From Escherichia phage AidaStucki_Bas93, in the sequence record PQ850593.1: a stretch of DNA of 64,000 nt; one strand, 5' to 3'. Position numbers and translations under genes: made by a program. The notes under the pieces are model-generated. The model saw only the letters and a program-made list of their open reading frames with translations. It was not told where the DNA came from and made no database searches. Below are positions 1,603-60,835 of this stretch, piece after piece. Positions within the stretch are counted from its first letter, which is position 1, and every line of letters starts with the position of its first letter.

Positions 1603-3846
1603 ATGGCTAAGCAAAAATATAGTGAAGAGGTGTTGGACGAGTTACGTGTTGACCTTCAACGTCGTTTTAATTACGCTCAAGGTTACGTTGACATGGCTGT
1701 TAAGGGCTATGCTCGTGAAGCTTGGGAATATTTCTATGGTAACTTACCTGCACCAGTAACTGCTGGCAGCTCTAGTTGGGTAGATCGTACTGTTTGGGAG
1801 TCTGTTAACGGTACGCTGCAAGATATTATTAACGTATTCTGTTCTGGTGATGAAGCAGTTATTTTCGTAGCTGATAACCAACAGGATTCTGATGCTGCTG
1901 ACGTAGCAACTAAATTAGTTAATCAAATTCTTCTGCGTGATAATCCGGGATACAACATTATCTCTTCTGCTGCACAAGAATGTCTGGTTACTCGTAACTC
2001 TTTTATCAAATATTATTGGGATGAGCACACTTCTACCCAAACCGAAGAAGCTGAAGGTGTACCACCGGAGGCATTGGCTGCATATGTTCAGGGATTAGAA
2101 GCTGGTGGACTCAAGAATCTGGAAATCTTCACTGAAGAAAACGAAGATGGTACAGTAGATGTTAAAGTTACTTATGAACAAACTGTTAAACGTGTGAAAG
2201 TTGAATATGTTCCTTCAGAGCAAATCTTTGTTGACGAACATGCTACCTCTTTTGCAGATGCACAATATTTCTGTCATCGTGTACGTCGTTCTAAAGAAGA
2301 TCTGGTTGCTATGGGCTTCCCTAAAGACGAGATTGAAGCATTCAACGACTGGACAGATACGATGGATACCACTCAATCTACAGTTGCTTGGTCTCGTACT
2401 GACTGGCGTCAGGACATTGATGCTGACATTGGTACAGATACCGAAGATATCGCTTCTATGGTTTGGGTTTATGAGCACTACATCCGTACTGGTGTTCTAG
2501 ATAAGAATAAAGAGTCTAAACTCTATCAGGTTATTCAAGCTGGTGAGCATATCCTTCACACTGAAGAAGTAACTCATATTCCGTTTGTAACCTTCTGCCC
2601 ATATCCGATTCCGGGTTCCTTCTATGGTCAGTCAGTCTATGACATTACGAAAGATATTCAGGATTTACGTACCGCGTTAGTTCGTGGTTATATTGATAAC
2701 GTCAACAATGCTAACTATGGTCGATACAAAGCACTCGTTGGTGCATACGATCGTCGCTCTCTGCTTGATAATCGTCCCGGTGGAGTGGTTGAAATGGAAC
2801 GTCAGGACGCTATTGACCTGTTCCCATACCATAACCTACCTCAAGGTATTGACGGCCTATTAGGTATGTCTGAGGAGCTTAAAGAGACACGTACTGGTGT
2901 AACTAAACTTGGCATGGGTATCAACCCTGACGTGTTTAAGAATGATAACGCTTATGCAACTGTAGGCTTGATGATGAATGCTGCACAGAACCGTCTCCGT
3001 ATGGTATGTCGTAATATTGCTCACAACGGCATGGTTGAATTGATGCGTGGTATTTACAACCTTGTCAGAGAAAACGGTGAAGTTCCTATTGAGGTACAAA
3101 CCCCTCGTGGTATGGTTCAGGTAAATCCGAAACAATTACCAGCTCGTCACAATCTTCAAGTTGTGGTAGCTATTTCTCCTAATGAGAAAGCAGAACGTGC
3201 ACAGAAATTAATTAGCTTGAAACAGCTGATTGCAGCAGATGCACAGTTAGCACCTCTCTTTGGTTTGGAGCAAGACCGTTACATGACTGCACAGATCTTT
3301 GAGTTGATGGGTATTAAGGACACTCATAAGTACTTACTGCCTCTGGAACAGTATCAGCCTCCTGAGCCGTCTCCGATGGAAATCCTCCAGCTCGAGATGA
3401 CTAAAGCACAGGTTGAGAACGTACAGGCTTCCTCTCAGAAAATGATTGCTGATGCATTCGACCAACGTGAACGTACTACATTCGAACAGCAGAAAGCTGC
3501 GGATGAGTTAAGTCTGCGTCAGGAAGAGTTGCAGTTCAAGCAAGAAAATGCAGCAGATGCTATGACTCTGGAAAACCGTAAAGAAGATAACAATGCAACT
3601 CTGGAACAAGCAAAGCACAAGTTAGCTCTTATGCAACAGCAGGTCCGTCAGTATGAGTCTGTACTGAAAGAATTGCAGATGGTTATGGAGCATCAGGTAG
3701 ACCAAGAGAAGATTGTTCAGCAATTTCGTGTTCAGGATAAAACTTTGGAACTCCAAAAGAAAGAAGCTAATGTAACTAAGAAAGAGCAACAAGCCTCTCT
3801 CAAAGATTCACGGATTCCAGGCAAACGTCTTGGAAGTAAAAAGTAA
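1603..3846 (+). CDS. Portal protein (747 aa) with a C-terminal coiled-coil tail
   Basis: Large ORF directly after terL and upstream of scaffold and capsid. RBS GAGGGAGAGAATAG before the ATG. Q/E/K-rich helical C-terminus as in podovirus portals. Confidence 0.6.
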   Translation: MAKQKYSEEVLDELRVDLQRRFNYAQGYVDMAVKGYAREAWEYFYGNLPAPVTAGSSSWVDRTVWESVNGTLQDIINVFCSGDEAVIFVADNQQDSDAADVATKLVNQILLRDNPGYNIISSAAQECLVTRNSFIKYYWDEHTSTQTEEAEGVPPEALAAYVQGLEAGGLKNLEIFTEENEDGTVDVKVTYEQTVKRVKVEYVPSEQIFVDEHATSFADAQYFCHRVRRSKEDLVAMGFPKDEIEAFNDWTDTMDTTQSTVAWSRTDWRQDIDADIGTDTEDIASMVWVYEHYIRTGVLDKNKESKLYQVIQAGEHILHTEEVTHIPFVTFCPYPIPGSFYGQSVYDITKDIQDLRTALVRGYIDNVNNANYGRYKALVGAYDRRSLLDNRPGGVVEMERQDAIDLFPYHNLPQGIDGLLGMSEELKETRTGVTKLGMGINPDVFKNDNAYATVGLMMNAAQNRLRMVCRNIAHNGMVELMRGIYNLVRENGEVPIEVQTPRGMVQVNPKQLPARHNLQVVVAISPNEKAERAQKLISLKQLIAADAQLAPLFGLEQDRYMTAQIFELMGIKDTHKYLLPLEQYQPPEPSPMEILQLEMTKAQVENVQASSQKMIADAFDQRERTTFEQQKAADELSLRQEELQFKQENAADAMTLENRKEDNNATLEQAKHKLALMQQQVRQYESVLKELQMVMEHQVDQEKIVQQFRVQDKTLELQKKEANVTKKEQQASLKDSRIPGKRLGSKK

Positions 3847-12791: not shown

Positions 12792-13010
12792 ATGAAAATG
12801 ATGAAACAAATCAGTTATGGGCTAGCTTGCGTTGCTACCGGTTTTGTTGTGTCAGTGGCTGTTCCTGTTAACGCAGTGCATCCTCTGATAACACAGCCTG
12901 CACCAGTTGAGAAGTTAAGTGCATCTTGTAAGCAGCGTACAATTCAGAATAATCTTGTGGTTATTTGTCCGGACTCTGATTCTAGTGCTCTGAGAAACAT
13001 GCTTCAGTAA
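12792..13010 (+). CDS. Small membrane or secreted protein directly upstream of the endolysin (candidate single-TMD holin or signal-anchored lysis factor)
   Basis: N-terminal hydrophobic segment GLACVATGFVVSVAVPVNA. RBS TAGGAGATACGAAG upstream. Position immediately 5' of the endolysin gene. Confidence 0.3.
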   Translation: MKMMKQISYGLACVATGFVVSVAVPVNAVHPLITQPAPVEKLSASCKQRTIQNNLVVICPDSDSSALRNMLQ

Positions 13011-13039
13011 TTTAGAGCTAACTGGAAGGGAGGTGAAAA

Positions 13040-13531
13040 ATGGATAATGTCGCATTGCCACCGATACAGCTGAGCTTAAGCCCAGACGGGATGGAATTCA
13101 TCATGAAGCATGAAGGTATGAGAACTCGTGCTTACAAAGATTCCGCAGGTATCTGGACGATATGTGTTGGGGCTACGCGCGATATGAATGGGTATCCAGT
13201 TAGACAGGGATTAACGTATTCTATAGAGGATTGTCTAGCTCTGCTAGATAGAGACACACAAGACTCTGTTCGTGCCACTCAGAAAAATATTAGGGTTCCT
13301 TTGTTAACCCACGAGTTTGATGCTCTCACCTCTTTCAACTTCAACGTTGGTGGTGAGGCTTTATCAACTTCTAAACTTAGGAAAGTTATTAACGGAGATG
13401 TGAAGGGTGATGTTTATTCCGAATTTCTTCGTTGGGATAAAATAACGGTAAGGGGAGAGAAGCAGAGAAGTCAGGGTCTTCATAACAGAAGGGTTGCAGA
13501 AGCTGATCTTTACACCGAAGGTAAATATTAA
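13040..13531 (+). CDS. Endolysin, T4 lysozyme family (GH24 muramidase)
   Basis: Catalytic triad context EGMRTRAYKDSAGIWTICVG (Glu ... Asp ... Thr), as in the T4 lysozyme E11/D20/T26 triad. RBS GGAAGGGAGGTGAAAA upstream. Confidence 0.9.
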   Translation: MDNVALPPIQLSLSPDGMEFIMKHEGMRTRAYKDSAGIWTICVGATRDMNGYPVRQGLTYSIEDCLALLDRDTQDSVRATQKNIRVPLLTHEFDALTSFNFNVGGEALSTSKLRKVINGDVKGDVYSEFLRWDKITVRGEKQRSQGLHNRRVAEADLYTEGKY

Positions 13532-29148: not shown

Positions 29149-30018
29149 TTACCAAGATTTATCTAACCATGTCCAGTCGAACAGGTCTTCCGGAGCCTGA
29201 CCAACAAAGAGAAGCCGAGCATTCTCAAGCATTTTCTCTTCATCTTCAGTATCGAACTTCTTATAATATTCCATTCGTACTATATGATACATGGTCCACT
29301 TATCTGTAACCCCAGCCAACAACTTAGCTGCTGCTTTCTTCCCTATCCCTTGACGTCGAAGCTGGAGCTTACCGCCCCACATCACTTCTTTACGTTCACC
29401 ACATCCGGGAATATTATCTGTTCCATCTCCAATCAGCATCTGATAGAAGAAATTTTGCCATGAAACTAAATCAGATACGTAGTGAGGAGGAACCTCTTTT
29501 TGTCTTTCTCCACAAGCCCAACGGTAATGCCATCCGGGAGTTATTAACAAATCTTTGTCTCTAGTACAGATGATAGTGTTCTTATCTCTACGTTGCCTTT
29601 CAGCTAGTGCATCATCAGCCTCTCTCCCAAATACATCTATGTATTCATACTTACCTTTAATATAATCACCGACATTTTGCCAGTGAAAAGGTCTTTCTCC
29701 GGGAGGTCTGTTTGCTTTGTAGTCTTGCTGCTTAGCAACATCGAAACGGAAGTTACCGCCTTCGCTGAAGTAGAACACAACCTTACTGCAACCTGAGCGA
29801 GCAATGATAGTATCTATCTTGTACTGAAGTCGTTCAATCATGAAATTATAATCAACTGGAACACGTCCTGTGTCAAGAAAGGGATGCTCCTGAGTAAGGG
29901 CACCCACTTCATATCGAAGAACATCTCCGTCCACAATCGCTACTTCTGGATAAGATATATCACTCATGATTTCCTCCATGGTGTCGGATAAGGTGACAAT
30001 TAGCACAGAGCATGACAC
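29149..30018 (-). CDS. 5'-3' exonuclease / flap endonuclease (T5 D15, T7 gp6, Pol I 5'-nuclease family)
   Basis: FGREADDALAE metal-binding motif. H3TH-like GDGTDNIPGCGERKEVM ... KAAAKLL. Confidence 0.75.
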   Translation of the reverse strand: MSCSVLIVTLSDTMEEIMSDISYPEVAIVDGDVLRYEVGALTQEHPFLDTGRVPVDYNFMIERLQYKIDTIIARSGCSKVVFYFSEGGNFRFDVAKQQDYKANRPPGERPFHWQNVGDYIKGKYEYIDVFGREADDALAERQRRDKNTIICTRDKDLLITPGWHYRWACGERQKEVPPHYVSDLVSWQNFFYQMLIGDGTDNIPGCGERKEVMWGGKLQLRRQGIGKKAAAKLLAGVTDKWTMYHIVRMEYYKKFDTEDEEKMLENARLLFVGQAPEDLFDWTWLDKSW

Positions 30019-30403
30019 ATTTATCTAACTCTGCCTTAAGTTTAGGCCAGTACCGATAGTATGAAGGGTTTTCGTCTTTTGTTTGTTCATCCAGATGATG
30101 GAACTGCATAACACAAGGTGGGTATTCTTTTTTACAATCTAAGCAAACACCTCCCATGTATTCTATTGCTTTTATCTTAAGATCTCTATTTGCCTTATTA
30201 GCAACCTCTTGCCGTCTTTTTCTATTGGCAGCATACCAAGCTCTTTTCTTTTCTGCGGTACAAATCCTACAAGTTCCAGTAACACCCTTAGTACACATCT
30301 TATTGGGGTGATATTCTGTTATGGCTTTTTCAACCCCACAAACGTTACACACCTTAGTATCAGCATCCACTATAGCTACTTCAGGGAGCTTAACGTCTTC
30401 CAT
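29960..30403 (-). CDS. HNH endonuclease (Zn-finger type)
   Basis: Multiple CxxC pairs and C-terminal CANCHLIRHHGGNH. Confidence 0.6.
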   Translation of the reverse strand: MEDVKLPEVAIVDADTKVCNVCGVEKAITEYHPNKMCTKGVTGTCRICTAEKKRAWYAANRKRRQEVANKANRDLKIKAIEYMGGVCLDCKKEYPPCVMQFHHLDEQTKDENPSYYRYWPKLKAELDKCVMLCANCHLIRHHGGNHE

Positions 30404-43622: not shown

Positions 43623-44870
43623 TTAGTTGTTTGTTTCTATGTCAAAAGAGAATCCACGACCCGCTTCATCGGCAAACCGAGCTGTATGGGTTTGAGGCTC
43701 TAATACTTCAGGGTTGTTAGCAATAAAGCGAGCGGCGAGATTATCTTCCACATCTTGACTAGAGGGCTGACGTGCGCTAACAGTTAAACCATTTGGTCGA
43801 CCATTAGAACGTCTAGACAACCACTGCTCAAATGAATCACTAGTAACACCAAGAGCCTCTTCAAAAGATGTTCTACGAGTAGGGCTTACTCTTCGTGACT
43901 CTTGTGCTCGACGCATTGCAGGGGCTACAAACACCCCTTCAATTGCATTATGTCGATTAGGTTCATCTTCCCGACCAAGGAGATCACCTCCTGCATTAGT
44001 TGTTAAGTTTGTCAACCCTTCAGACCAATACGCACGAATCTGGCTAGAGCCATAAATGCTTGACATTAACTGAATCTCTTCATAAGGTATATCAAAGAAT
44101 CGACTCATATCTCGGTTAACACAATACTGAGCACTTGTTGTATCCTCAATAAGAGCAACCTGACCCCGTTCGTTGACCAGATGACTAACCGGCTGAGGTG
44201 TGGGAAGGTGTCGAGTTTGGGCCATGTATTGATATGCAGCTGCTGGAGAGGAAAATCTCAACACTTGCGAGTTAGGCCACTTCTTGTGAACATACCTGAT
44301 TTCACGACTAGAAACAACCACTGGACAAGGGGCGGTCATAGCCAAGTATCCATGAGGGGTCATGAATAAGTTATCAAGAGTCATCGCACCACGGCACATC
44401 ATAGGAAAATTATCCAATACCTCTTCAATAGAAGTAGGATAATTAAACATGAATTGGATACGAACACCATTCCACTGAAACTCAATAATATCAGTGAATG
44501 TTAATTGAGAACCCCCAGCATATGATTCGTTCGTAGCTTCAACAAGAAGAGATGAATACTCAATATCTTGTGATTCAAGCCATTCCTTCACATTACTTTC
44601 AATCTCCCGTCCAAGCATTTGCCACTGCTCGGCTGGGATAAAGGTATTTCGAGTTCTTGGTGTTTGTCCTCTGACAATAAAGATATCAATGTCATGTGGA
44701 GCTATGTTATTAAGAACAGCATCACGAATAGCTCCACCAGTAATGATAGGGCAAATACCATCTGGAATCAAGTTGTTGTTAATCAACTGTTCAATGAAGT
44801 GACGACCAACAGTGATATCAGGTTGTTGAGCAACCTTATCTTCAATTCGGTTAATCGGGATAACAATCAT
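43623..44870 (-). CDS. Pol-beta superfamily nucleotidyltransferase with a CCA-adding or poly(A)-polymerase-type head domain
   Basis: GGAIRD ... HDIDIF catalytic motifs. The start is trimmed to MIVIPINRI, directly after the stop of the upstream gene (ATGTAAAATG). Confidence 0.55.
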   Translation of the reverse strand: MIVIPINRIEDKVAQQPDITVGRHFIEQLINNNLIPDGICPIITGGAIRDAVLNNIAPHDIDIFIVRGQTPRTRNTFIPAEQWQMLGREIESNVKEWLESQDIEYSSLLVEATNESYAGGSQLTFTDIIEFQWNGVRIQFMFNYPTSIEEVLDNFPMMCRGAMTLDNLFMTPHGYLAMTAPCPVVVSSREIRYVHKKWPNSQVLRFSSPAAAYQYMAQTRHLPTPQPVSHLVNERGQVALIEDTTSAQYCVNRDMSRFFDIPYEEIQLMSSIYGSSQIRAYWSEGLTNLTTNAGGDLLGREDEPNRHNAIEGVFVAPAMRRAQESRRVSPTRRTSFEEALGVTSDSFEQWLSRRSNGRPNGLTVSARQPSSQDVEDNLAARFIANNPEVLEPQTHTARFADEAGRGFSFDIETNN

Positions 44871-44871
44871 T

Positions 44872-45426
44872 TTACATTTTCCAATATAATGAAGGTGGGT
44901 CGTAAGGATCAAATCCTGTGAGTTCACACAAGTATTTATAAACCTTAACAGTTAAGTTAACGTCCTGTTCACAGTAAGTAAACATATCTTCAGTGAAAGC
45001 ATCCCATGCTTCCTCTTGCTCACCGTAATCTCCTTTAAGTTCCCCCAAGAACTCACCCCATTGCTTCAAACCGTGACCTCTTGGGCCATGTCTAGGGTCG
45101 CCTTTCGGATACTCAGGACTGTCACCAATACGATCAGGTTTAAGATATCGACTAAGACACAGAGTGTCGAAGACGTTAAAATGATATTTAATCAGATTGG
45201 GATATATTTTCTTCAGAGCACAAAGGTCGAAGTCAATAATGTTATGGCCCACGAGCACATCAGCTTCTGTAAGTTTACGAATCCCATCTTCAATTTGGTG
45301 AGGCCGGTAGCCCCACCTTTCACCAGTTTCAACATCGAAAATGTAAATACACCATACTTTAGTTATATCATCGTACAGTGCGTTACTTTCGATATCAAAT
45401 GCAAACACTTTCTTTTTCTTTACCAC
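44872..45426 (-). CDS. Free-standing DnaQ-like 3'-5' exonuclease (proofreading domain encoded separately from the polymerase)
   Basis: Exo I FAFDIESN. Exo [11 protein letters not shown]. Exo [16 protein letters not shown]. Confidence 0.7.
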
Positions 45427-58668: not shown

Positions 58669-59162
58669 ATACCCTCCAATTAAACATTTATATAAGACTT
58701 GCTTAGATAAAGATTCAATAAAATAGGGGGAGGGGACGAATCCTCCCTTATCCTATTAATTAGTATTGCATGTAAGATCTAACAATCGGTTTCCTTTGTA
58801 GGAATAAGCGTTATGCTCATCCAGCACTAAACTCCCGCCCCCTTAGTGGGCTGGGTTATTAAAGGGTAACGCCCTTATGGGCTAGTTACGTGAATGTTAG
58901 TTTGATAGGAGATCTGAAGTCCTATCTCAAAGGACTCTCGTAAGAATCCTTCACGATAAGCTCTTAATATACTAATCCGTGTAAGAGAAACACTCTCTTA
59001 GTTAACTCTGCTTTAGCTCTGTAATAAGCCGTAGAACCTAACAGGCGGCTCTTAACAAAGAACTTGATGTCATTGCTTACGTCTTGTATTAAACGCTCCT
59101 GTACAGCTTCTGAGGAGCTATTAATTGAATCAATTAACACCTTTGTAGATGTGTAATTCACA

Positions 59163-59444
59163 TCACCACTCCTTACCGGTTGTAGTTGTAGAGCCACCAC
59201 ACCACTGTGCATTAGATAAGGTTTTAGTCTCCTCATCCATTGCTGCACCATTCATGCATGAGATACCATTGTAACGCATATCAATTTCGCCAGAAGGAAC
59301 CTTCTCACCTTTATGCCAGCGAGATACACAAATACCTTCCACTGCTACTGCACACCATCCATCAGGACGGCTCTGTACACAGCCTGTAAGGGCCACACAG
59401 ACAAGGAAGATACAGATTAAGGATATTACACCACCCCAACTCAT
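59163..59444 (-). CDS. Small Cys-rich lipoprotein (start trimmed to MSWGGVISLI ... LTGC)
   Basis: RBS GGAGGTG before the ATG. Signal peptide plus lipobox LTGC. The longer tool ORF reads through the upstream RNA structure. Confidence 0.5.
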   Translation of the reverse strand: MSWGGVISLICIFLVCVALTGCVQSRPDGWCAVAVEGICVSRWHKGEKVPSGEIDMRYNGISCMNGAAMDEETKTLSNAQWCGGSTTTTGKEW

Positions 59445-59467
59445 AACACACCTCCAAGAGCTTCTAG

Positions 59468-59546
59468 CGAGGATGACAGGGTTCGAACCTGCATACTCCA
59501 ATTACTTCTTTAACGACCGCTTAGAAGGCGGGGAAGATACATCCTC
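59468..59546 (-). ncRNA. tRNA-like element with a perfect 7-bp acceptor stem, a canonical T-arm, a UCU anticodon-like hairpin, no D-arm and a long variable region
   Basis: T-arm GCAGG-TTCGAAC-CCTGT. Acceptor stem GAGGATG/CATCCTC plus discriminator G. Hairpin CCGC-CUUCUAA-GCGG. Embedded in a 15+5 bp inverted repeat. Confidence 0.35.
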
Positions 59547-59557
59547 GCTAGAAGCTC

Positions 59558-60064
59558 TTATTTATTATTGAAACCCTTGCTCCAGTAATACTTACCATTG
59601 CAAGACCTACTACAAAAATGATTTTGGTTTTCTTTGTGGACCTTGTTACTCCTTCTCTCAAAAGATGTGCCACAATTACTGCAAACCAAAGTTATGACCA
59701 CACCCTTAGGTCTGTTCTCTAAGGTCTTCTTTAAGTGATCATTTGTGCTTAGAATCTGAAGGTTAGATATCTCATCATTGGTTGGATTTTGATCAACATG
59801 ATCTACCTCTTCCTCTGTAGTGAGATATCTTCCTATGTGGCAGGACATTAAGTACCTAGCATAAGAAACAGTAGACCTGTCTTTATCAGAGTTGTAAAGA
59901 TCTACAACCCTTCTCCCCTCTCGATTTTGACGAAGATATCCCCACCTCCAGTCATTGCAGTAGGGATAATCTAATTGTATTTTCAAATTACCTCCTGCTC
60001 TATCCATTGAGCTAAGAGCGCTTAATTTATTTAGATCATATCTCGCTTGGTGATAGGACCACAC
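59558..60064 (-). CDS. HNH homing endonuclease
   Basis: DHVDQNPTNDEISNLQILSTNDH HNH core plus a C-terminal CxxC ... CxxC. Confidence 0.65.
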   Translation of the reverse strand: MWSYHQARYDLNKLSALSSMDRAGGNLKIQLDYPYCNDWRWGYLRQNREGRRVVDLYNSDKDRSTVSYARYLMSCHIGRYLTTEEEVDHVDQNPTNDEISNLQILSTNDHLKKTLENRPKGVVITLVCSNCGTSFERRSNKVHKENQNHFCSRSCNGKYYWSKGFNNK

Positions 60065-60835
60065 ACTTTACATTCATACCAACCTTAAGCACATGCAGGG
60101 AGTGTGATGATTTCAGGTTTACCTTCGAACTCTTCAAACAAACCCAAGAATGTAGGGCTATACGTACCAGTACAAACAAACTCATCAAAGAGTTCATTGT
60201 ATGAGGGCTTAATCTTCCAAGCCCACACATAGCCCATCTTATCAATTGCAATGTAACGAGTGTTTAGAGGAACAGTCATCATCACACCATCAACTTCGAC
60301 CACTTTAGTGATTGGTGCAGCTTGGAAGTTTTTCATACTTTACCCTTAATTAAAACAACAAAGGCCACCCGATTGGGCAGCCTTTTTTATTTGTTAACTG
60401 TTATAGATCCAATTACCTTGCTTGTTACGGATAGTGGACATTGCATGAACCCAGAAGCCTTCCAGTTTCAGAGCACCATTAGTTACTGCATCCATACGTT
60501 CAGGGCGGTTCATACGTTTGGTTGATACTTTCATACCTATCTCTCTCTTTGTTAGTGGAGGCATTATTGCCAGTTGATATAGCAGATAACCCTATTAAAA
60601 GGACTACCGACTATCTAAACTGGTGAAGACTCCCTACCCCTAGAGAGTCTCCTGAATCCCAAACCAATATGTACCCCTACATATCGGAAAGTCTACCGAA
60701 AATTAACAGGTTTTAGTCTAACACCGGATGTTCGAGCAAGCTCTCCCTAGCGGTGTGGCATATGCCTGATTTAATAAGTTAATGAGGAACACCCTCACAT
60801 AGCCCTCTGATAAGCACAAGGGCTATAAGTCGGTG

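Follow-up and report, generated by a model that had tools for sequence, protein, structure and literature searches.

A conserved phage RNA gene of tRNA ancestry, probably a non-cloverleaf tRNA-Arg(UCU), in an HNH homing-endonuclease cassette of Escherichia phage AidaStucki_Bas93

The 64,000-nt stretch of DNA analysed here (the window) comes from Escherichia phage AidaStucki_Bas93 (PQ850593.1), a Kuravirus, that is, a phiEco32/SU10-like podophage of E. coli. On its minus strand, at 59468..59546, lies a 79-nt element (counted through discriminator G59468) that is identified by the Rfam tRNA model, by a model of its own family and by covariation as a probable tRNA-Arg(UCU) of non-cloverleaf form. 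It belongs to a conserved, phage-specific and apparently undescribed family of Arg tRNA genes; no published description of this family was found in open-access full text, and an earlier report is possible. It is almost certain that the element is a functional, conserved RNA gene descended from a tRNA, and comparison of the sequences argues that it is probably a charged, decoding, structurally rewired tRNA-Arg(UCU). By function and ancestry it would thus be a tRNA-Arg(UCU), and by structure it is not a cloverleaf. We are evenly divided on the wider proposition that a rewired L-shaped tRNA-Arg arose in phages, has spread among unrelated lineages and is charged and used by the ordinary bacterial translation apparatus while being unlike every cellular tRNA in its connectivity. 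In that rewiring the D-stem would enclose the anticodon arm and the D-loop would have moved to the variable-loop position.

Read on the minus strand, the region runs TAAGAGCTTCTAGC-GAGGATG-TAT-CTTC-CCCGC-CTTCTAA-GCGGT-CGTTAAA-GAAG-TAATTGGAGTAT-GCAGG-TTCGAAC-CCTGT-CATCCTC-G-CTAGAAGCTCTTGGAGG. The acceptor stem is a perfect 7-bp helix (GAGGATG/CATCCTC, 59546-59540/59475-59469), the T-arm is canonical (GCAGG-TTCGAAC-CCTGT, 59492-59476), and the anticodon arm (CCCGC-CUUCUAA-GCGGU, 59532-59516) presents the anticodon UCU at 59525-59523, all as described in the original prediction. That prediction, made from the window sequence alone, was also right that the D-arm position, between the acceptor and anticodon stems, holds only seven nucleotides (TATCTTC) and that the position of the variable loop is filled by 23 nt. 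The seven comprise U8A9U10 (59539-59537) and the 5' strand of a new helix, CUUC/GAAG (59536-59533/59508-59505); the 23 comprise a bulge CGUUAAA (59515-59509), the 3' strand of the new helix and a D-loop-like strand UAAUUGGAGUAU (59504-59493) that occupies the variable-loop place. A D-arm hairpin with G18G19 between positions 10 and 25 is absent, and the variable region is neither 4-5 nt long nor a long hairpin arm, so the element should not be filed as a canonical tRNA, and the earlier view that it cannot fold as a standard cloverleaf stands. Its derivation from a tRNA, with the anticodon layout of tRNA-Arg(UCU), is upheld by these stems, by a family signature set out below and by a match to the Rfam tRNA model RF00005 on 59468-59546(-) (E = 0.038 in the whole window and 2.5e-4 in the local region), in which the D-arm is deleted and 20 nt are inserted in the variable region. 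Folding of the 116-nt region gave -47.6 kcal/mol, compared with -27.7 +/- 3.2 in 200 shuffles (z = -6.2, 0/200). ARAGORN called no tRNA anywhere in the window, where the element is the only tRNA-like gene. Other Rfam families near the element gave chance-level matches (SBRMV1_UPD-PKd and L17DE, E > 1). A permuted, split or intron-containing tRNA gene was considered and dropped, since the acceptor strands stand at the termini of the element; as to a split gene, the element's 3' acceptor strand finds no complement in the native tRNA fragment that lies upstream of the neighbouring HNH gene.

Relatives of the element are widespread among phages. Searches with blastn using the 131-nt region of the window retrieved 145 phage records, and the copy in phage phi92 retrieved 258, with 253 covering at least 80% of the query. 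The matches include phi92-like Justusliebigvirus, Felix O1 and its relatives, Vequintavirinae or rV5-like phages (SSBI34, A73), T5-like Klebsiella phages (Sugarland), PBECO4-like jumbo phages, some kuraviruses and eight Streptomyces phages. In IMG/VR, motif scans brought the number of distinct members to 33 and, in the end, to 51. Among 185,579 bacterial and archaeal species, scanned at one genome per species, only two contigs turned up, both from metagenome-assembled genomes. With a covariance model derived from 33 members of the family, members reach 78-104 bits (95.5 bits for the window copy) and canonical tRNAs do not exceed 33 bits. The alignment of these 33 members is gap-free over 79 nt, with 31/79 positions invariant. 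In GenBank the homologues are either unannotated (phi92, Felix O1) or labelled 'tRNA-OTHER', 'tRNA-Undet' or 'tRNA'. When the scaffold was searched for with the anticodon left free, UCU was found in all members except one, which has CCU, also an Arg anticodon.

Several records deserve separate mention. The single CCU-anticodon member lies at 12999-13077 of an IMG/VR contig (L226) with a 28-tRNA array. At 13348-13426 of the same contig, 270 nt downstream, is a divergent relative that scores 51.5 bits, carries the motif CTAATTGGATAGAA 3' of its anticodon arm and is called by ARAGORN a 98-nt tRNA-Arg(tct); the rewired architecture may thus be broader than the core family. The element is also carried by five records named as 'Campylobacter phage' (MG065639, MG065645, MG065656, MG065689 and MG065664), and the copies checked are 100% identical to that of phi92. 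These MG0656xx genomes measure about 146 kb, as do those of phi92-like coliphages, and their host labels look doubtful.

The fold was examined by covariation on 50 distinct sequences. Double changes occur at 7/7 acceptor pairs, 5/5 anticodon-stem pairs and 3/5 T-stem pairs, and 94.8% of the cells in these columns are paired, compared with 65.6% after shuffling and 33-46% when the partners are slid. No part of the family is more conserved than the two stretches of 7 nt and 23 nt for which a cloverleaf has no place, and within them U8-A9-U10-C11, C-R-U-U-A-A, A-G-U-A-A and G-G-A-G-U-A-U are invariant or almost so. RNAalifold alone returned the three classic stems only, and the new helix emerged only when variants were retrieved on purpose: IMG/VR was scanned for 5' strands departing from the consensus CTC, with the 3' strand left free. 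All of the variants retrieved are complementary (CAC/GTG, CAG/CTG, CAT/ATG, CGC/GCG, CGG/CCG, CGT/ACG and CTT/AAG). By column, the pairs are CG in 50 sequences at 11-42, UA in 35, AU in 8 and GC in 7 at 12-41, and CG in 40, UA in 6 and GC in 4 at 13-40, so that 150/150 cells are paired, with 25 double changes and none unpaired. With a fourth pair the helix would span columns 11-14 with 39-42; this pair is usually A.C and is C-G in the window. A competing hairpin in the variable region, CCGA-GUAA-UUGG, was also considered and rejected. It shows almost no double changes, two of its four pairs are unpaired in 23/50 and 13/50 sequences, and it is unable to form in the window copy, in the L033 copy or in the copies of the Streptomyces phages. 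Because every retrieved variant pairs and this hairpin shows hardly any covariation, we regard the new helix as established in preference to it.

At the level of comparative sequence analysis, these data show a secondary structure made of the acceptor, T and anticodon stems together with the new helix in the place of the D-arm. The 5' strand of the new helix begins just after U8-A9-U10, and its 3' strand follows the anticodon stem at a distance of 7-8 nt. The helix, of 3-4 bp, encloses and directly adjoins the anticodon stem, creating a three-way junction with a 7-nt bulge on the 3' side, and a 12-nt strand joins it to the T-stem. The invariant strand UAAYUGGAGUAU resembles the D-loop of tRNA-Arg (A14 R15 Y16 Y17 G18 G19 A20 ... 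A21) and may act as one, with A-A taking the part of A14/R15, G-G that of G18/G19 docking on the T-loop, and the following A that of A20, the main determinant for arginyl-tRNA synthetase (ArgRS). It would leave the distal end of the new helix as a D-loop leaves its D-stem, and the new helix presumably stacks on the anticodon stem as a D-stem does. The nucleotides of the tRNA core and elbow (U8, A14, R15, G18, G19, T54, Psi55, C56 and A58) are available in spite of the changed strand path. On this model the L-shape, the elbow and the arginine identity (A20, C35, U36 and R73) would be kept with a different strand connectivity.

Several lines of evidence point to a role as tRNA-Arg(UCU). U33, C35, U36, A37, GG-A, G53-UUC-A58-C61 and U8-A9 are invariant across the family, as are the T-arm alignment positions G59, T60, T61, C62, A64 and C67, and the discriminator is G or A in 29/33 members (G in the window copy). 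The bacterial arginine identity set consists of A20, C35, U/G36 and A/G73 (PMC9976931). The family matches this set if the invariant A after GG is equated with A20. NCCA is encoded exactly after the acceptor stem in 19/33 members. The element is also usually one gene of a phage tRNA array, of which the largest has 28 tRNAs; these arrays include Arg(ACG) and do not contain a canonical Arg(UCU), for example in L055, L085, L016, phi92 and Felix O1. In window open reading frames (ORFs) AGA accounts for 18% of Arg codons, or 10 per 1000 codons, and this codon is rare in the host. We propose that host ArgRS charges the element and that the element reads AGA. In E. coli, HisRS, EF-Tu and the ribosome are known to accept an engineered tRNA without a D-arm (PMC11551756).

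Selection on the element itself is suggested by the kuravirus 1-6af, in which the element matches that of the window at 79/79 positions, against identities of 87.4% for the HNH gene and 90.8% for the lipoprotein gene that flank it (P about 2e-5). This difference is indicative of purifying selection and, together with the compensatory covariation that pervades the family, contradicts the earlier suggestion of a degenerate tRNA. A decaying pseudogene, left without function as the debris of homing-endonuclease insertion and repair, would agree with the tRNA fragments present at the locus (nt 1-27 of the native gene in the window and a 3' remnant in phage TH42) and with the rejection of the element by tRNA finders, or its marking as undetermined. 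It would not explain such identity beside flanks at 87-91%, the presence of the element in 258 genomes of unrelated phage families, compensatory changes in every helix, or its occurrence away from any HNH gene and in arrays with their own promoters, such as TTGACA-N17-TATAGT in front of the phi92 copy. As judged from these comparative data, the pseudogene reading is effectively refuted and hardly credible.

The genomic setting of the element was reconstructed by comparing the same locus across kuraviruses. In phage LAMP there is no HNH gene, and an intact canonical tRNA-Arg(UCU) with CCA lies directly upstream of the lipoprotein gene. The window instead has a remnant of this native gene at 59995..60021 on the minus strand (GCGCTCTTAGCTCAATGGATAGAGCAG), equal to the first 27 nt of the LAMP tRNA, behind which lie the HNH gene, then the element, then a new Shine-Dalgarno sequence. 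The remnant retains the acceptor 5' strand, a complete D-arm, A26 and G27, and similarity to LAMP ends at the anticodon stem; homology to HNH-free kuraviruses such as LAMP resumes just before the ATG of the lipoprotein gene, which marks the 3' junction of the cassette. In phage 1-6af a cassette of the window type cuts the native tRNA after G19. In O18-011 an HNH gene of the same family stands after native nt 30, and a canonical tRNA-Arg(UCU) comes next as the replacement. Both halves of the native gene survive in Bas92, together with a canonical replacement tRNA and a different HNH gene that runs on the opposite strand. Bas94 has the element without an HNH gene, and so does TH42, where a 3' remnant of an O18-011-type tRNA follows. 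This comparison indicates that the element is one of several interchangeable alleles at the tRNA-Arg(UCU) slot. As far as the alignments go, they show that the HNH cassette truncated the resident tRNA-Arg(UCU) gene after nt 27 and carries the element as a substitute, and the relevance that the original prediction had given to the adjacent homing endonuclease is upheld. The element would thus have reached the locus as cargo of an HNH homing-endonuclease cassette, compensating for the gene that the cassette destroyed. Beyond the kuraviruses, HNH genes of at least three families adjoin the element in nine loci, including Felix O1, in which the HNH gene is immediately downstream.

Individual loci offer further observations on the history of this slot. 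In Bas92 (L001, 2030-2660) the HNH gene and an intact tRNA-Arg(UCU) are inserted between the native tRNA halves, and the tRNA-Arg locus is the main difference seen from the window in the 24 kb (40000-64000) over which the two phages were compared and are 99.3% identical, with 98% coverage. In TH42 (L006, 2590-2616), downstream of the element, the remnant GGTTCGAATCCTTCCGTCCCGACCA equals the 3' end of the O18-011-type replacement tRNA-Arg, and its sequence indicates what were probably successive nested replacements at the locus. The Bas94 copy (L127, 640-810) has a native-type T-loop TTCAAAT, an A discriminator, an unrelated 5' leader and a closing helix that is largely lost, and it looks like a recombinant of the cassette allele with other alleles.

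The element in the window is closed by a long helix between its leader and trailer. The 5' leader arm (59547..59560, minus strand) includes the stop codon of the HNH gene, and 59455-59468 is its perfect complement; the 3' trailer arm occupies 59455..59467 (minus strand), where CTA rather than an encoded CCA follows the discriminator. An extended inverted repeat around the element had been noted before and is indeed present. The one-base bulge then described is not, and the helix is an uninterrupted 20 perfect bp plus one T.G pair, AAGAGCTTCTAGCGAGGATG (59559-59540) with CATCCTCGCTAGAAGCTCTT (59475-59456). It is two turns long and ends one base from the Shine-Dalgarno sequence of the lipoprotein gene, and within it discriminator G is paired with C-1. 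Members of the family fall into two classes, one with CCA and no pairing between leader and trailer, and the other with no CCA and with the acceptor stem extended by 12-15 bp. The window copy is in the second class with about ten other members, in which leader/trailer helices of this length differ in sequence and all of which lack CCA. Since the sequences differ between members, compensatory change maintains the extension.

The terminator scan found no intrinsic terminator at 59455-59560, where the helix is not followed by a U-tract and the trailer continues CUCUUGGAGG, and a scan of 59000-60600 in the window found no sigma-70-like promoter. The absence of both between the HNH and lipoprotein genes places the element inside a polycistronic transcript. 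We suggest that it shares a transcript with the HNH gene upstream and the lipoprotein gene downstream and is excised from the mRNA at the 20-21-bp helix, with RNase P cutting at G59546 and a 3' endonuclease cutting after G59468; RNase III could also act on the two-turn duplex. CCA would be added by a host enzyme, as it is not encoded. The closing helix may therefore have a role in precursor processing or in insulation. The original prediction had pointed to a nearby CCA-type nucleotidyltransferase, a link that did not hold: the ORF in question (43623-44927(-)) is 15 kb away, has no Pfam match and carries only a generic PHROG label of 'nucleotidyltransferase', and a nucleotidyltransferase is annotated in both kuraviruses checked, Bas92 (with a canonical, CCA-encoding tRNA-Arg) and Bas94 (with the element).

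A number of observations weigh against a functional tRNA of this fold. The Rfam tRNA model recognised the element, marginally, at 29.7 bits against a gathering score of 29, and ARAGORN called neither a tRNA nor a tmRNA, and never called the core element in the window or in at least 35 related loci. The top pair of the anticodon stem is a C.U mismatch in the window copy, as in 11/50 members. For the window copy alone, the minimum-free-energy structure contains a CUUCU/AGAAG pairing that destroys the anticodon hairpin and is preferred by 1.6 kcal/mol, and in most members nearest-neighbour energies favour CCGA-GUAA-UUGG over the new helix by 3.6-5 kcal/mol. In L108 a canonical tRNA-Arg(UCU) is adjacent to the element, so that the element and the canonical gene are not strictly exclusive and a separate role is possible. 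In the window copy CCA is missing and the 5' leader is fully paired with the trailer; this pairing is the weakest point of the tRNA reading, because it is expected to hinder RNase P. Finally, we infer every step beyond a conserved structured RNA of tRNA ancestry, including aminoacylation, processing and the three-dimensional fold.

Three further explanations were weighed. The most probable of them is compatible with a functional tRNA and holds that selection on the rewired gene acted chiefly on its DNA, favouring an allele resistant to homing endonucleases whose target is the canonical tRNA-Arg gene, and not on a property of the RNA such as escape from host nucleases directed at tRNA. The junctions of the cassettes in four kuraviruses all fall within canonical positions 19-30, a stretch that reaches from the D-loop into the anticodon stem, and the element, having no contiguous counterpart of these positions, may hypothetically be an endonuclease-resistant allele. 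The HNH genes flanking the element in nine loci agree with this idea, yet phage tRNA arrays are generally rich in homing endonucleases, which makes such adjacency unspecific (T4 SegB, PMC2330249), and many members have no HNH gene nearby; we consider selection mainly of this kind to be possible but unlikely. Rather less probable is a non-decoding mimic of tRNA-Arg(UCU), a decoy that would keep the anticodon arm, elbow and acceptor in order to bind or titrate a factor directed at that tRNA, be it an anticodon nuclease or toxin (colicin-D-like), a defence effector or an enzyme of tRNA modification. Nothing in working bacterial tRNAs corresponds to the rewired core or to the invariant 7-nt bulge CRUUAAY, a canonical tRNA-Arg(UCU) stands beside the element in L108, and about a third of the members have no CCA and are locked in the long leader/trailer helix; in addition, phage tRNAs are known to counter defences that target tRNAs (PMC11464382, PMC11555353). 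A decoy would leave unexplained, however, the NCCA at the exact 3' end of most members, R73, the GG-A determinant of ArgRS with its A20-like A, the large arrays that have Arg(ACG) yet not the canonical Arg(UCU), and the interchangeability of the element with canonical replacement tRNA-Arg genes in homologous HNH cassettes.

It is also conceivable, and in our judgement very improbable, that the locus matters for its 20-21-bp helix, which could serve as an RNase III site or a stabiliser of mRNA ends, and that the tRNA-like interior is incidental to an element for RNA processing or insulation. Such a role would suit a two-turn helix that holds the HNH stop codon and abuts the next Shine-Dalgarno sequence, the compensatory changes that keep the extension in about ten members, and the position of the element within a polycistronic transcript with no sigma-70-like promoter in the 1.6 kb scanned. 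On the other hand, 19/33 members have no such helix and an almost perfectly conserved interior, it is the interior and not the extension that is invariant across phage families, and the terminator scan gave no match at this site, where the helix has no U-tract behind it. Both the mimic or decoy and the processing signal had been options of the original prediction, and both are less likely than a working tRNA with a rewired core that replaces the resident gene, a reading absent from that prediction.

The structurally rewired tRNA-Arg(UCU) proposed here can be compared with several known systems. With the canonical phage tRNA-Arg(UCU) of LAMP and the copies in Bas92 and O18-011 it has in common the genomic slot, the CUUCUAA loop, the 7-bp acceptor stem, the 5-bp T-stem with a GUUCRA loop, the purine discriminator and the presumed reading of AGA; where the canonical gene has a D-arm hairpin and a 5-nt variable loop, the element has an enclosing helix, a 7-nt bulge and a 12-nt strand. 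Its closest structural analogue is the metazoan mitochondrial tRNA-Ser(AGY/UCU). In the D-arm-lacking mitochondrial tRNA-Ser the anticodon stems are similarly lengthened. These tRNAs, for instance those of bovine and Ascaris suum mitochondria, likewise form a three-way junction without a D-arm hairpin and are functional adaptors (reviewed in PMC7609411). They are, however, organellar, AT-rich and poorly conserved, have lost the elbow contacts and need specialised partners, whereas the element is phage-encoded, has an invariant GG D-loop surrogate and a canonical T-loop, and would require the ordinary bacterial machinery. The engineered 'mini HisT' (Edelmann et al. 2024, PMC11551756) resembles the element in being a D-arm-less tRNA tolerated by a bacterial aminoacyl-tRNA synthetase, EF-Tu and the ribosome, and differs in being synthetic, specific for histidine and limited by PNPase degradation; according to the same paper, all known bacterial tRNAs are cloverleaves.

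Other comparisons concern the cassette and the tRNA-like parts of larger RNAs. Free-standing homing endonucleases of phage tRNA clusters (T4 SegB, PMC2330249; PMC13096335) also reside among tRNA genes, are polymorphic for presence and absence, and co-convert flanking tRNAs. Compared with T4 SegB, the window cassette truncates its target tRNA and brings a substitute, and its enzyme is of the HNH and not the GIY-YIG type; the substitute is canonical in the Bas92 and O18-011 cassettes and non-cloverleaf in that of the window. The tRNA-like domains of tmRNA and the tRNA-like structures of plant RNA viruses also mimic an acceptor/T-arm within a larger RNA, and they have no decoding anticodon arm or have pseudoknotted acceptors, in contrast to the covarying arm and invariant Arg anticodon of the element. 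A tmRNA or a structure of the plant-virus type is not supported; ARAGORN found no tmRNA.

Both neighbours given for the element in the original prediction were confirmed. The HNH homing-endonuclease gene spans 59558..59996 on the minus strand, with a Shine-Dalgarno sequence AGGAGG at 59996-59991 and the stop codon TAA at 59560-59558, and the TTG at 59986 behind AGGAGG is the likely start codon. The ORF so defined (59986-59558(-)) matches PHROG 14913 'HNH endonuclease' with E = 3.3e-54, and its match to Pfam HNH_3 (E = 1.3e-4) is sub-threshold. The lipoprotein-like gene downstream of the element occupies 59163..59455 on the minus strand (Shine-Dalgarno GGAGG at 59455-59451, ATG at 59444; PHROG 4281), and its ORF (59444-59163(-)) encodes 93 aa. 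A strong hairpin at 60360-60385(-) resembles an intrinsic terminator, with 11 pairs and GTTGTTTT behind them. It lies upstream of the gene before the native tRNA remnant, and the transcription unit of the HNH gene, the element and the lipoprotein gene may begin there. Elsewhere in the window, at 29981-30187(-), a second HNH-type ORF fragment is 51% identical (tblastn) to the HNH protein of the Bas92 cassette, and its sequence suggests that the phage genome may have another homing-endonuclease gene. Among related phages, ARAGORN reported tRNAs with two-base 'anticodons' (tt, gt, ga), that is, with a non-standard anticodon loop, at 3133-3208 of the phi92 locus L003 (annotated as tRNA-Lys(TTT)), at 928-997 and 2598-2672 of L016, and at 262-337 of L031. 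They could represent more phage tRNAs of unusual form, with a possible bearing on the evasion of anticodon nucleases.

If the element is indeed a decoding tRNA, it would be the first natural non-cloverleaf elongator tRNA to operate in bacterial cells, and its family would be a natural counter-example to the cloverleaf rule, working in cells of E. coli, Salmonella, Klebsiella and Streptomyces. Its carriers include the long-studied phages Felix O1 and phi92, in which the element is unannotated or 'undetermined'; phage tRNA complements, and arguments based on AGA codon usage, would then have been systematically under-counted. The possible pay-off for the phage is invisibility, either to host nucleases and toxins directed at tRNA-Arg or to homing endonucleases that cut canonical tRNA-Arg genes. 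The finding raises the structural question of how a different tRNA core is read by ArgRS, EF-Tu, RNase P and the ribosome, and the family would offer synthetic biology an evolution-tested and possibly orthogonal tRNA scaffold. Lastly, the cassettes suggest that, besides the use of introns and inteins, homing-endonuclease cassettes can compensate for a destroyed gene by means of a substitute that they carry.

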